Virus record (IMG/VR): IMGVR_UViG_2667527849_000003
From: a virus
Lineage: Duplodnaviria > Heunggongvirae > Uroviricota > Caudoviricetes
DNA length: 5,162 bases
Strand: one strand, 5' to 3'
The notes under the pieces are model-generated. The model was not told where the DNA came from. It saw only the letters and a list, made by a program, of their open reading frames with translations, and searched no databases. This document shows, piece by piece, positions 33 to 5,162 of the stretch; position 1 is the stretch's first letter; every line of letters begins with the position of its first letter. The translations under genes were made by a program, and so were the position numbers.

Positions 33-2219
33 ATGGGTAAAGGCAGCAGTAAGGGGCATACCCCGCGCGAAGCGAAGGACAACCTGAAATCCACGCAGTT
101 GCTGAGTGTGATTGATGCCATCAGCGAAGGGCCGGTTGACGGTCCGGTGGATGGATTAAAAAGCGTGCTGCTGAACGGTACGCCGGTCCTGGACAGCGAG
201 GGGAAGACAAACTTTTCCGGTGTTACGGTGGTGTTCCGTGCAGGTGAGCAGGAGCAGACACCGCCGGAGGGTTTTGAATCCTCCGGCTCCGAGACGGTGC
301 TGGGTACGGAAGTGAAATATGACACGCCGATCACCCGGACCATCACGTCGGCAAACATTGACCGTCTGCGCTTTACCTTCGGTGTGCAGGCACTGGTGGA
401 AACCACCTCAAAGGGTGACCGGAATCCGTCGGAAGTCCGCCTGCTGGTTCAGATACAGCGTAACGGTGGCTGGGTGACGGAAAAAGACATCACCATTAAG
501 GGCAAAACCACTTCGCAGTATCTGGCCTCGGTGGTGGTGGGTAACCTGCCGCCGCGCCCGTTTAATATCCGGATGCGCAGAATGACGCCGGACAGCACCA
601 CAGACCAGCTGCAGAACAAAACGCTCTGGTCGTCATACACCGAAATCATCGATGTGAAACAGTGCTACCCGAACACGGCGCTGGTCGGCGTGCAGGTGGA
701 TTCAGAGCAGTTCGGTAACCAGCAGGTGAGTCGCAATTATCATCTTCGCGGGCGCATTCTGCAGGTGCCGTCGAACTATAACCCGCAGACGCGGCAATAC
801 AGCGGTATCTGGGACGGAACGTTTAAGCCAGCATACAGCAACAACATGGCCTGGTGTCTGTGGGACATGCTCACTCATCCGCGCTACGGCATGGGGAAAC
901 GTCTTGGTGCGGCAGATGTGGACAAATGGGCGCTGTATGTCATCGGCCAGTACTGCGACCAGTCAGTGACGGACGGATTTGGCGGCACGGAGCCGCGCAT
1001 CACCTGTAACTCTTACCTGACCACACAGCGTAAGGCGTGGGATGTTCTCAGTGATTTCTGCTCGGCGATGCGCTGTATGCCGGTATGGAACGGACAGATG
1101 CTGACGTTCGTGCAGGACCGACCGTCGGATAAGGTGTGGACCTATAACCGCAGTAATGTGGTGATGCCGGATGATGGTGCGCCGTTCCGCTACAGCTTCA
1201 GCGCCCTGAAGGACCGCCATAATGCCGTTGAGGTGAACTGGATTGACCCAGATAACGGCTGGGAGACGGCGACAGAGCTTGTGGAGGATACGCAGGCCAT
1301 TGCCCGTTACGGTCGTAATGTCACGAAGATGGATGCCTTTGGCTGTACCAGCCGGGGGCAGGCACACCGCGCCGGGCTGTGGCTGATTAAAACGGAACTG
1401 CTGGAAACGCAGACCGTGGACTTCAGCGTGGGCGCAGAAGGGCTTCGCCATGTACCGGGTGATGTCATTGAAATCTGCGATGATGATTATGCCGGTATCA
1501 GCACCGGTGGTCGCGTACTGGCGGTGAACAGCCAGACCCGGACGCTGACGCTCGACCGTGAAATCACGCTGCCATCCTCCGGCACCACGCTGATAAGCCT
1601 GGTTGACGGGCAGGGGAATCCGGTCAGCGTGGAGGTCCAGTCCGTCACCGACGGCGTGAAGGTAAAAGTGAGCCGTGTTCCTGACGGTGTTGCTGAATAC
1701 AGCGTGTGGGGGCTGAAGCTGCCGACGCTGCACCAGCGATTGTTCCGCTGCGTGAGTATCCGTGAGAACGACGACGGCACGTATGCCATCACCGCCGTGC
1801 AGCATGTGCCGGAAAAAGAGGCCATCGTGGATAACGGGGCACACTTTGACGGTGACCGGCGCGGCACGGTGAATGGTGTCACGCCGCCAGCGGTGCAGCA
1901 TCTGACCGCCGAAGTCACCGCAGACAGCGGGGAATATCAGGTGCTGGCGCGATGGGACACGCCGAAGGTGGTGAAGGGTGTGAGCTTCCTGCTTCGCCTG
2001 ACCGTGGCAGCGGACGACGGCAGTGAGCGGCTGGTCAGCACAGCCAGGACGACGGAAACCACATACCGCTTCAGGCAGCTGGCGCTGGGGAATTACAGTC
2101 TGACAGTCCGGGCGGTAAATGCCCGGGGGCAGCAGGGCGATCCGGCGTCGGTATCGTTCCGGATTGCGGAAATCCGGTCAGCGTGGAGGTTCAGTCCGTC
2201 ACCGACGGACTTAAGGTGA
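33..2219 (+). CDS. J: Lambda-type tail tip / host specificity protein J (gpJ), N-terminal fragment. J-homologous coding runs to about 2170, then the frame reads 49 nt out of frame through the duplication junction to a TGA at 2217..2219
   Basis: ATG at 33 with upstream purine-rich RBS. The translation begins [34 protein letters not shown], which I recognise as the N-terminus of phage lambda gpJ, and the ORF shows J-like sequence across ~712 codons. The tail [19 protein letters not shown] is the frame-shifted read of the second repeat copy. Strand + and frame 0 (33 mod 3). Confidence 0.85.
1617..2170 (+). repeat. Copy 1 of a 554-bp direct tandem duplication inside J
   Basis: aatccggtcagcgtggagg at 1617 recurs at 2171, and ggattgcgg at 2161..2169 recurs at 2715..2723. 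The constant offset of 554 was checked at the start, middle (cgtgagtatc at 1751 and 2305) and end. Encodes [18 protein letters not shown]...[10 protein letters not shown] in J frame. Confidence 0.9.
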
Positions 2220-2724
2220 AAGTGAACCGGGTTCCTGACGGCGTTGCAGAATACAGCGTGTGGGGGCTGAAGCTGCCGACGCTGCGCCAGCGTCTGTTCC
2301 GCTGCGTGAGTATCCGTGAGAACGACGACGGCACGTATGCCATCACCGCCGTGCAGCATGTGCCGGAAAAAGAAGCCATCGTGGATAACGGGGCGCGCTT
2401 TGACGGCGACCAGAGCGGCACGGTGAATGGTGTCACGCCGCCAGCGGTGCAGCACCTGACCGCCGAAGTCACCGCAGACAGTGGGGAATATCAGGTGCTG
2501 GCGCGATGGGACACGCCGAAGGTGGTGAAGGGTGTGAGCTTCCTGCTTCGCCTGACCGTGGCAGCGGACGACGGCAGTGAGCGGCTGGTCAGCACAGCCA
2601 GGACGACGGAAACCACATACCGCTTCAGGCAGCTGGCGCTGGGGAATTACAGTCTGACAGTCCGGGCGGTAAATGCCCGGGGGCAGCAGGGCGATCCGGC
2701 GTCGGTATCGTTCCGGATTGCGGC
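2171..2724 (+). repeat. Copy 2 of the 554-bp direct tandem duplication inside J (in frame +2 relative to copy 1)
   Basis: Same unit as 1617..2170 displaced by 554 bp. About 20 nucleotide substitutions against copy 1, all within the first ~312 bp (last difference near 2482); the remaining ~240 bp are identical. After 2723 the sequence continues caccggcagcgcctgtc (APAAPVTIE), the expected continuation of J. Confidence 0.9.
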
Positions 2725-4066
2725 ACCGGCAGCGCCTGTCACTATTGAACTGATACCGGGGTATTTTCAGATAACGGCGGTCCCGAAACTGGCTGTATAT
2801 GACCCGACGGTGCAGTTTGAGTTCTGGTTTTCGGAAAAGCGGATTGCGGATATCAGGCAGGTTGAAACCACAGCCCGCTATCTTGGTACGGCGCTGTACT
2901 GGATAGCCGCCAGTATCAATATCAGGCCGGGCCATGATTATTATTTTTACGTTCGCAGTGTGAACACCGTTGGCAAATCGGCATTTGTGGAGGCCATCGG
3001 TCGGGCGAGCGATGATGCAGAAGGTTATCTGAATTTTTATAAAGGGTTGATCAATAAAACGCATCTCGGCAAGGAGTTGTGGACGCAGATTGATAACGGT
3101 CAGCTTGCGCCGGACCTGACTGAAATCAGGACGTCCATTACGAATGTCAGCAATGAAATCACGCAAACCGTCAATAAAAAACTGGAAAATCAGAGTGCTG
3201 CAATCCAGCAGATACAGAAAGTTCAGGTTGATACAAATAATAACCTGAACAGCATGTGGGCTGTGAAGCTGCAACAGATGAAGGACGGACGCCTTTATAT
3301 TGCGGGTATCGGTGCCGGTATTGAGAATACGCCAGCAGGAATGCAGAGTCAGGTGCTGCTGGCGGCAGACAGGATTGCGATGATTAATCCTGCGAATGGC
3401 AACACAAAGCCGATGTTTGTTGGTCAGGGCGATCAGATATTCATGAACGACGTGTTCCTGAAATGCCTGACGGCTCCGACCATTACCAGCGGCGGTAATC
3501 CTCCGGCATTTTCCCTGACACCTGGCGGACGGCTGACGGCGAAAAATGCCGATATCAGCGGTAACGTGAACGCGAACTCCGGGACGCTCAACAACGTCAC
3601 GATTAATAAGAACTGTCGGGTTCTGGGAAAATTGTCCGCGAACCAGATTGAAGGCGATCTCGTTAAAACAGTGGGCAAACCTTTCCCACGGGACTCCCGG
3701 GCACCGGAGAGGTGGCCATCAGGGACCATTACCGTCAGGGTTTATGACGATCAGCCGTTTGATCGGCAAATTGTTATTCCCGCGGTGGCGTTTCGCGGTG
3801 CTAAACATGAGCGGAAGAATAACAATATTTATTCGTCATGCCGCCTGATAGTGAAGAAAAACGGTGCTGAAATTTATAACCGAACGACCCTGGATAATAC
3901 GCTGATATATACGGGTGTTATTGATATGCCTGCCGGTCACGGTCACATGACGCTGGAGTTTTCTGTATCGGCATGGCTGGTAAATGGCTGGTATCCCACA
4001 GCAAGTATCAGCGATTTGCTGGTTGTGGTGATGAAGAAAGCCACTGCAGGCATCACGATTAGCTGA
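2183..4066 (+). CDS. J: gpJ-like host specificity protein, C-terminal fragment: second copy of the duplicated segment, an FN3-like domain, and the C-terminal (receptor-binding) region. Possibly non-functional as a stand-alone gene
   Basis: ORF in frame +2 opening at GTG 2183, the first start codon in frame; there is no convincing RBS, so the true start is uncertain. Translation [19 protein letters not shown]... repeats the J segment and continues with J-like motifs ([47 protein letters not shown]) that I recall from lambda gpJ. Stop TGA at 4064..4066 is followed by a hairpin terminator. Confidence 0.75.
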
Positions 4067-4084
4067 ATTTTATAACCCAGATAC

Positions 4085-4109
4085 GGGCACCAGAAATGGT
4101 GCCTTTTTT
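4085..4109 (+). terminator. Rho-independent terminator downstream of J (tJ-like)
   Basis: Stem ggcacc (4086..4091), loop agaaat, stem ggtgcc (4098..4103), then TTTTTT (4104..4109), 19 nt after the J stop codon. Confidence 0.6.
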
Positions 4110-4122
4110 ATTGCAGAAAAGC

Positions 4123-4128
4123 GAGAGG
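4123..4128 (+). promoter_or_regulatory. Ribosome-binding site for lom (GAGAGG)
   Basis: gagagg lies 5 nt upstream of the ATG at 4134. Confidence 0.5.
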
Positions 4129-4133
4129 TAATT

Positions 4134-4205
4134 ATGCGTAAAGTTTGTGCAGCCATTTTGTCCGCAGCCATTTGTCTGGCCGTATCCGGTGCGCCTGCAT
4201 GGGCG
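4134..4205 (+). other. Predicted Sec signal peptide of Lom (24 aa, cleavage after A-W-A)
   Basis: Basic N-terminus (MRK), hydrophobic core (VCAAILSAAICLAV), and AxA-type cleavage motif AWA followed by SEHQ. Confidence 0.6.
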
Positions 4206-4733
4206 TCTGAACATCAGTCCACGCTGAGCGCCGGGTATCTTCAGACCCATACTGATATGCCAGGCAGCGATGACCTGAAGGGCATTAACGTGAAATACCG
4301 TTATGAGTTTACGGACACGCTGGGGCTGATTACGTCATTCAGTTATGCCAACGCTGAAGATGAGCAAAAAACGCATTACAGCGATACCCGCTGGCATGAG
4401 GATTCCGTGCGTAACCGCTGGTTCAGCGTGATGGCGGGGCCGTCTGTGCGCGTGAATGAATGGTTCAGCGCGTATGCGATGGCGGGTGTGGCTTACAGCC
4501 GTGTGTCGACTTTCTCCGGGGATTATCTTCGCGTAACTGACAACAAGGGGAAAACGCACGATGTGCTGACCGGAAGTGATGGCGGTCGCCACAGCAACAC
4601 GTCTCTGGCGTGGGGAGCTGGCGTGCAGTTTAACCCGACCGAATCCGTGGCCATTGACCTTGCTTATGAAGGTTCCGGCAGTGGTGACTGGCGCACTGAC
4701 GGTTTCATCGTGGGTGTCGGTTATAAATTCTGA
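4134..4733 (+). CDS. lom: Lom-family outer membrane protein (Ail/Lom/PagC/OmpX-type 8-stranded beta-barrel), phage-borne lysogenic-conversion 'moron' gene
   Basis: 199-aa ORF with ATG start and good RBS. N-terminal Sec-type signal peptide MRKVCAAILSAAICLAVSGAPAWA. C-terminus YEGSGSGDWRTDGFIVGVGYKF ends in a terminal Phe, and the alternating hydrophobic pattern is typical of outer-membrane beta-barrels. This C-terminal block matches lambda Lom as I recall it, and the position directly downstream of J matches lambda gene order. Confidence 0.9.
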   Translation: MRKVCAAILSAAICLAVSGAPAWASEHQSTLSAGYLQTHTDMPGSDDLKGINVKYRYEFTDTLGLITSFSYANAEDEQKTHYSDTRWHEDSVRNRWFSVMAGPSVRVNEWFSAYAMAGVAYSRVSTFSGDYLRVTDNKGKTHDVLTGSDGGRHSNTSLAWGAGVQFNPTESVAIDLAYEGSGSGDWRTDGFIVGVGYKF

Positions 4734-4760
4734 TTAGCCAGGTAACACAGTGTTATGACA

Positions 4761-4786
4761 GCCCGCCGGTTCAGGCGGGCTTTTTT
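4761..4786 (+). terminator. Rho-independent terminator downstream of lom
   Basis: Perfect 7-bp GC-rich stem gcccgcc (4761..4767), loop ggttca, stem ggcgggc (4774..4780), followed by TTTTTT (4781..4786), 28 nt after the lom stop. Confidence 0.75.
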
Positions 4787-4797
4787 GTGGGGTGAAT

Positions 4798-5124
4798 ATG
4801 GCAGTAAAGATTTCAGGTGTACTGAAAGATGGGGCGGGTAAACCTGTCGTAAATTGTGCGATTGAACTGCGGGCCAGAAGAACCAGTCCGACCGTTGTGG
4901 CACACGTTGTTGCCACTTGCGTGACGGACAATAACGGTGCTTATGTGATTGAGGCTGAGCCGGGGTATTACGAGGTTGCGCTTCACTGTAACGGCTGGCA
5001 GCCAACCCGTGTCGGGGATATTGATGTGGCACCGACTGATGCACCGGGGACACTGAACGCGTTTCTGAATGCACCAAAGGATGGTGATTTACGTCCGGAG
5101 GTGATGAAGTGTCAGCGCCAGTGA
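4798..5124 (+). CDS. stf: Side tail fibre protein (Stf-like) N-terminal domain; ORF of only 109 codons, probably a truncated remnant or disrupted gene
   Basis: ATG at 4798 with GGGG 5 nt upstream, preferred over the GTG at 4792 that the ORF track uses. Translation MAVKISGVLKDGAGKPVVNC...PGTLNAFL...RPE resembles the conserved N-terminus of lambda Stf as I recall it (MAVKISGVLKDG...), and lies downstream of lom as in lambda. Stop TGA at 5122..5124. Confidence 0.6.
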   Translation: MAVKISGVLKDGAGKPVVNCAIELRARRTSPTVVAHVVATCVTDNNGAYVIEAEPGYYEVALHCNGWQPTRVGDIDVAPTDAPGTLNAFLNAPKDGDLRPEVMKCQRQ

Positions 5125-5162
5125 TATAAGACGGTAATTCGCCATTTGGATTGTCCGCTCCA

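Follow-up and report, generated by a model that had tools for sequence, protein, structure and literature searches.

In a lambda-like prophage remnant, lom lies between J and stf, flanked by two predicted intrinsic terminators

Lom is often cited as a prophage gene that alters the host surface, hence the value of defining the unit in which it is transferred. What that unit is, and how it is read, is the question raised by a J–lom–stf locus in a caudoviricete sequence of 5,162 nucleotides (IMGVR_UViG_2667527849_000003; hereafter, the window), for which a first-pass annotation had proposed an insulated moron cassette between two terminators. Morons have been defined as extra DNA of atypical composition with a promoter, a gene, and a terminator (Juhala et al. 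2000; Cumby et al. 2012, PMC3594210). Lom is called a moron product in reviews, and lambda lom is reported to be expressed in lysogens and to affect adhesion (PMC1151598, PMC3594210). We consider it probable (roughly 75% for the explanation as a whole) that window positions 4067–4790 hold lom from a prophage remnant of the lambda type, at its usual site between J and stf and with two Rho-independent terminators on the + strand. The terminator-bracketed layout is already known, being annotated in phage 434 and present in lambda; the points worth recording are that the upstream terminator is an element of the phage backbone and that the lom cassette is promoterless.

In the window, J (33–4066, as two ORFs) is followed by a 67-nt spacer, a 199-aa ORF (4134–4733, +), a 64-nt spacer, and a stf-like ORF starting with the ATG at 4798. 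The 199-aa ORF matched PF06316 (Ail_Lom) from end to end (1–199 of 199; E = 4e-129, 428.6 bits against a cut-off of 23), upholding its earlier assignment to the Lom family, and was intact here; 108 of the 116 complete IMG/VR copies were likewise 199 aa long. In the comparison with homologues that the first-pass annotation had called for, the protein was 45% identical to lambda Lom (2.5e-50 to PDB 9wso_C) and matched the solved OmpX and Ail structures at approximately 1e-19, with homology to OmpX, Ail, and PagC over the whole mature protein. Full-length lambda Lom (206 aa) has been solved as chain C of PDB 9wso. By inspection, the protein has an N-terminal Sec signal peptide (MRKVCAAILSAAICLAVSGAPAWA/SEHQ, ending ...PAWA/SEHQ) and a C-terminal aromatic beta-signal (...VGVGYKF). 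From homology to the solved Lom, OmpX, and Ail chains it is predicted to be an eight-stranded outer-membrane beta-barrel, which would be exported and would then form an Ail/OmpX-like barrel within the outer membrane. Members of this family are associated with adhesion and serum resistance. Whereas OmpX, Ail, and PagC are chromosomal, have their own regulation, and comprise ~150–170 aa, Lom here is a 199-aa precursor with longer predicted surface loops. The exact protein was indexed in 1874 blocks of public assemblies. Genome contigs retrieved with Lom were mostly lambda contamination in unrelated assemblies, with a few Escherichia and Shigella loci, and were used for hairpin variants only.

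The prophage that carries this lom is degraded. The window was 99% identical to chromosomes of ~4.8 Mb (CP104423, CP023645, CP102341, and CP019689), and in these the order was a Q-like gene, IS elements, M, L, K, I, J, lom, the stf fragment, and more IS elements. J is intact in these chromosomes (1159 aa), and the 3′ part of J in the window (2183–4066, +; Pfam Ig_J, Ig_J_second, Phage_Tail_Tip, and Ig_GpJ_C; stop TGA at 4064–4066) was 99% identical to it. In the window, a tandem duplication of 554 nt (copies 1614–2167 and 2168–2721, with 21 mismatches) puts J out of frame and divides it into ORFs 33–2219 and 2183–4066. All of the mismatches fell within the first 320 nt of the copies, whose last 240 nt were identical. 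Neither the 99%-identical chromosomes nor the best E. coli relatives have the duplication, which could have arisen by unequal crossover of two J alleles or be an assembly artefact. The stf gene is cut after codon 104 (4798–5109, +; phage_tail_N 1–104 of 134), and its similarity to the intact stf of locus L001 stops at 5109. Positions 5110–5162 (+) are the left end of an element of the IS21 family (TGTCAGCGCCAGTGATATAAGACGG...), and matched NZ_CP023853 directly upstream of an IS21-like istA; the same junction was found in the CP023645-like genomes. In CP019689.1 (loci L173 and L174) the M-L-K-I-J-lom segment occurs twice, 9.4 kb apart and with IS elements between the copies. The remnant is prone to IS-mediated duplication. 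An intact lom in an IS-riddled remnant that is widespread in sequenced enterobacterial chromosomes of ~4.8 Mb, probably those of Shigella, fits retention at the level of the host.

Two hairpins flank lom. The first, GGGCACCA-GAAA-TGGTGCCT at 4085–4104, comprises eight pairs with a folding energy of −14.2 kcal/mol (z = −3.8; none of 200 shuffles was as stable) and runs into six T residues (4104–4109), followed by ATT. Fold, scanner, covariation, lom-less phages, and the annotation of phage 434 together mark 4085–4109 (+) as a predicted, canonical, and conserved terminator behind J, as had been proposed from its appearance. It begins 18 nt after the J stop codon, one fewer than the 19 given earlier, and hairpin and T-tract end 29 nt 5′ of the lom ATG in all J–lom loci examined. 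The 24 nt once given as separating terminator and RBS holds only for the stretch between the last T of the tract and the ATG (4110–4133); the RBS itself (GAGAGG, 4123–4128, +), which we read from the sequence 5 nt 5′ of the ATG and whose counterpart in phage 434 is annotated at the corresponding position, lies 13 nt beyond the T-tract. Tandem t'J terminators beyond J were reportedly described by Luk and Szybalski in 1983. In N15 (L167, 6022–6066), a terminator precedes tail fibre gene 25 and is followed by TTTTTTATTGCCCAAAAGGAGG, which resembles TTTTTTATTGCAGAAAAGCGAGAGG after the J terminator here; the likeness may be a shared junction motif or a coincidence.

The second hairpin, AGCCCGCC-GGTTCA-GGCGGGCT at 4760–4781, has an 8-bp stem with seven G-C pairs, a 6-nt loop, and a folding energy of −18.2 kcal/mol, and is followed by T6 (4781–4786) and then GTGG. 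Here, too, the proposal of a strong terminator with a GC stem and T-tract was borne out, at the level of prediction, by the fold, the scanner, the variants in relatives, and the 434 annotation (4760–4786, +), and stf does begin at once, its ATG lying 11 nt past the second T-tract. Both sites have the features of intrinsic terminators (G+C-rich stem, short loop, and 3′ T run), and both hairpins fold stably, a point on which the first-pass annotation had made its proposal depend. Between the lom stop and the lom terminator we read a 13-nt perfect palindrome (TAACAC-A-GTGTTA, 4743–4755, +), predicted to form a small A/U-rich hairpin, which is the same in lambda and most relatives. In a few relatives it is broken without compensation.

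Chance would rarely supply such a pair of sites. Apart from these two sites, which are both on the + strand, a consensus scanner reported no eight-pair terminator-like site in the window; its remaining three matches had five pairs and were on the − strand. Under a stricter criterion (stem of ≥ 7 pairs, ≥ 4 G-C pairs, dG ≤ −12, and ≥ 6 T in 9), there were two sites on the + strand and none on the − strand, and 300 dinucleotide shuffles of the window gave no site in 296 cases, one site in four, and two sites in none. Neither stem is backed by a T run on the − strand; as the T-tracts occur on the + strand only, both hairpins are oriented with late, rightward transcription. At E ≤ 1, a search of all Rfam families returned only Trp_leader over the downstream terminator, at 21.7 bits against 41, which we set aside as a generic terminator resemblance.

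The two stems differ in how far their pairing is documented by variation. Among 133 loci, the upstream stem occurred as GCACC/GGTGC, GCGCC/GGCGC, and GCGTC/GACGC, with ACCT/AGGT in a more distant allele, and a mismatch or deletion was seen in only three sequences, one of which had a frameshifted lom. In an alignment of 13 distinct sequences, three of the eight pairs had changed on both sides (A-U to G-C, C-G to U-A, and A-U to U-A) and 96% of cells were paired; the covariation score was reached by none of 500 shuffles, and slid registers fell to 33–60% pairing. The downstream terminator was nearly invariant among relatives, and its pairing evidence is weaker than that for the upstream stem, since its few changes preserved pairing as G-U or were confined to the loop. 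Copies of lom with frameshifts or premature stops (L009, L011, and L031, from E. coli and Shigella flexneri chromosomes) kept both flanking hairpins. In L009, the upstream stem is also shortened by a 1-nt deletion.

Relatives that lack lom show to which unit each terminator belongs. A distant search of a phage collection exposed relatives in which the J end and stf start of the query lie only ~255 nt apart. After the J stop, Lambda_ev245, 3W, and Tritos have the hairpin of the window and TTTTTTATT, which lead directly into TGTGGAGTGAATATG, the RBS and start of stf. These and mEp460-like lambdoids share the J end, the hairpin with its T-tract, and the RBS and start of stf with the window but have no lom cassette, so that J and stf are separated by 58 nt. 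A pattern scan of IMG/VR identified 86 such stretches of DNA, and a re-scan of all fetched loci brought the count to 89 lom-less junctions; hence, in at least 89 relatives without lom, stf is immediately preceded by the same hairpin with its T-tract. The same variants of the stem recur among the lom-less junctions, one of which (L234) matches the window exactly in its J end and hairpin. The presence of this hairpin and T-tract in phages without lom makes the upstream terminator an element of the J–stf backbone, not of the lom unit. PY54 and Serratia phages, which we also considered as cases of J next to stf, were not clean examples; HK97 and Lambda_ev245, 3W, and Tritos were.

The lom unit, as delimited by the indel, spans approximately 4113–4785 (+; 673 nt) and contains 21 nt with the RBS, lom, the 13-nt palindrome, and its own terminator. 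Its edges are defined to ±2 nt because both fall within T runs. The cassette adjoins the backbone T-tract directly, and its terminator re-creates the lom-less geometry of terminator, 11 nt, and stf ATG. With only 21 nt from its left edge to the ATG, the cassette has no promoter of its own. As read from the sequences, the indel would be compatible with either insertion or deletion of lom between two T runs. Nucleotide identity to lambda (L002) was ~40–60% over most of lom and 90–100% from ~4660 through the terminator, a jump that marks a mosaic joint within the 3′ end of lom. The first ~30 nt of stf were 90–100% identical to lambda, with divergence beyond about codon 30 and 52% amino-acid identity overall. 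In a minority of loci (L008 and 13 IMG/VR loci, for example L138), lom is followed by other DNA in place of the usual terminator and stf, and a different terminator lies ~104 nt downstream. In P-EibA (AF151091.1, hit H178), similarity stops within the 3′ end of lom. The J–lom junction seems to accept further cargo.

These boundaries bring in a reading in which the hairpins act as DNA, as cassette-boundary or recombination palindromes for the gain and loss of cargo between J and stf. Both edges of the indel do lie in T runs beside hairpins, the mosaic joint near ~4660 (identity to lambda rising from ~50% to 90–100%) is close by, and in an IMG/VR locus (L045) the loop of the J–stf terminator is inverted (TTTC versus GAAA) above an unchanged stem, the signature of palindrome-mediated inversion or template switch. 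We nonetheless consider a DNA role very improbable: the T-tracts are found only on the strand read in late transcription, the strict criterion gave no terminator-like site on the other strand, G-U-preserving changes fit pairing in RNA and not in DNA, and the geometry is that of a textbook intrinsic terminator.

As terminators, the two hairpins have counterparts in known phages. The record of phage 434 (OL657226.1, 18918–19652) annotates the same series at equivalent coordinates, from the central tail fibre through a terminator, an RBS, the Ail/PagC/OmpX porin, a second terminator, and a second RBS to the side tail fibre, and nucleotide identity to the window is ~90% over lom and its flanks. 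Phage 434 is intact, while the window has a frameshifted J and a stf cut by an IS element. The claim that lambda has the same terminator-bracketed arrangement was confirmed by alignment, with hairpins at identical offsets. Lambda lom (NC_001416, 18965–19585) lies between J and orf-401/stf, with a hairpin and T-tract that also end 29 nt before the ATG, and near-identity to the window extends over the last ~75 nt of lom, its palindrome and terminator, and the start of stf. The differences are in the Lom protein (only 45% identical, as above), in the upstream stem, which is unrelated (CGTCCG/CGGGCG), and in the hexamers TATTAT and TATAAA at the junction. The lambda RefSeq record annotates no terminators.

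Measured against the definition of a moron, the locus gave a divided result. It holds extra DNA between genes that adjoin in relatives (an exact indel, with J next to stf in HK97 as well), and a terminator of its own lies downstream of the gene within the cassette (4760–4786). The 21 nt upstream, however, contain no match to a sigma70, sigma54, or sigmaE promoter and are not predicted to supply one, and GC content across lom (0.51–0.585) is like that of the flanks (0.45–0.55), so that atypical composition as a sign of foreign origin was not seen. The description as a moron cassette between two terminators therefore stands for position and for the lom terminator, and fails for the promoter, for the composition, and for the upstream terminator, which belongs to the backbone. 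The classical moron layout is seen with the lom of 933W and other Stx2 short-tailed phages and of the P1-like SJ46. There, an Ail/Lom-family gene is likewise followed by its own intrinsic terminator, but in another genomic context and with no upstream terminator, and the leaders are of 23–31% GC with sigma70-like scores of 9.4–10.7 (lac strength) at 60–80 nt from the ATG. HK97 gp22/23 and N15 genes 22–24 also sit as extra genes among the tail genes, with putative terminators just ahead of the tail gene that follows; their cargo is unrelated, and the HK97 morons were defined with promoters of their own (PMC3594210).

We next turn to what could transcribe lom. The earlier judgement that no convincing sigma70 promoter precedes the gene was confirmed and extended to 430 nt upstream. 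Using a position weight matrix (PWM) on which lac, pRM, pL, pR, and lacUV5 scored 9.2–13, the best sigma70 score at 3700–4140 was 5.6, against a median best score of 8.4 in shuffles, and nothing exceeded shuffle expectation in the equivalent regions of lambda, cdtI, L038, L005, and L008. RfaH ops, sigma54, PhoP-box, and sigmaE patterns had no match upstream of lom. A positionally conserved TTGA(C/T)A ~210 nt upstream was rejected, as it lies within conserved J codons (IDMP) and is without a −10. Among the regions scanned, the only sigma70 candidate near the start was the TATTAT formed at the junction of backbone and cassette in lambda, where TATTAT and TATAAA lie 21 and 18 nt before the ATG with a poor −35 and a score of 3.9. 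The allele studied here has neither hexamer and scored < 3 at that position.

Lom could still be an autonomous moron, with a weak or activator-dependent promoter that overlaps the upstream hairpin and T-tract. Its −10 would lie in the region of TTTTTTATTGC, with a start just 5′ of the RBS; it would drive lom in the lysogen while the first terminator shields it. The expression of the family members pagC and ail depends on activators, which lends the idea some plausibility, and the paired junction hexamers of lambda would be in the right place. Lambda lom is, moreover, reported to be transcribed in lysogens (PMC1151598, PMC7067206; see also PMC3594210), which implies some promoter that is invisible to a simple PWM. 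Even so, we regard the autonomous promoter, in all its parts, as unlikely: the scores of 3.9 in lambda and < 3 in this allele compare with the shuffle median of 8.4 and the 9–13 of real promoters, a −35 would have to lie inside the G+C-rich stem, motifs for PhoP, sigma54, and sigmaE are absent, and the cassette provides only 21 nt upstream of the ATG. Among the papers that our literature search covered, none maps the start site of lom transcription or tests either terminator. The small RNA 24B_1 of Phi24B, described as lying downstream of lom in PMC4426718, is part of the 933W-type arrangement and is not matched by anything here.

By analogy with lambda, the polymerase that transcribes lom here is most likely the Q-antiterminated one of late transcription. 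In lambdoid phages, Q-modified polymerase from the late promoter ignores terminators. During lytic growth such a polymerase would pass both terminators, so that J, lom, stf, and tfa would form one message. In the absence of Q, the first terminator would halt stray rightward transcription from the tail genes and the second would halt whatever enters lom, leaving stf silent; lysogenic expression of lambda lom would then come from weak initiation in or just after the first terminator, or from leak-through. Termination and read-through at both sites are in this sense predictions, drawn from the sequence and from what is known of Q in lambda. Because stf starts 11 nt after a strong terminator, with no room for a promoter, terminator read-through would be obligatory for its expression. 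The term insulated can consequently be kept for ordinary RNA polymerase only, as stf expression would require that both terminators be read through. Where this exact locus occurs in other genomes, IS elements separate the Q-like gene from the tail genes, and late transcription may no longer reach lom here.

If Q-antiterminated polymerase were the sole source of lom message, then lom would be a late gene and not a lysogenic-conversion gene. It would have a lytic role, for example a change to the envelope of the dying cell or its debris, as with Cor or Llp in other siphophages, and the signal in lysogens would come from spontaneously induced cells. A promoterless cassette directly behind a strong terminator is what this would predict, the J–stf junction of other phages carries outer-membrane or exclusion genes (for example, N15 genes 22–24, which include cor), and the promoter-like leaders of lom in other contexts make the contrast specific to the J–stf site. 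An exclusively lytic role is, in our estimation, doubtful, as papers report lambda lom to be expressed in lysogens and to affect adhesion (PMC1151598, PMC3594210), and lambda lom is dispensable for plaque formation (PMC10695390). Moreover, lom is intact in a remnant with a broken J (in the copy in the window) and a broken stf, which suggests selection at the level of the host and not of the virion cycle.

The transferable unit at this locus is an RBS, a gene, and a terminator, promoterless and placed behind a pre-existing terminator, and this sets it apart from the lom of Stx2 and P1-like phages, with their predicted promoters. For this locus the practical point is modest, and the transcription of lom in the lysogen becomes a narrow, testable question. 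We suggest, with little confidence, a more general reading, namely that lambda-type lom cassettes are promoterless passengers gated by the J–stf terminator, either through dependence on Q or through a junction promoter or regulated read-through. If lom were a Q-dependent late gene, its role would be at lysis, in masking receptors or debris, like that of Cor or Llp. If it were instead read from a promoter built at the junction, or by read-through, the difference between TATTAT in lambda and TATTGC in this allele would set very different levels of Lom in the lysogen.
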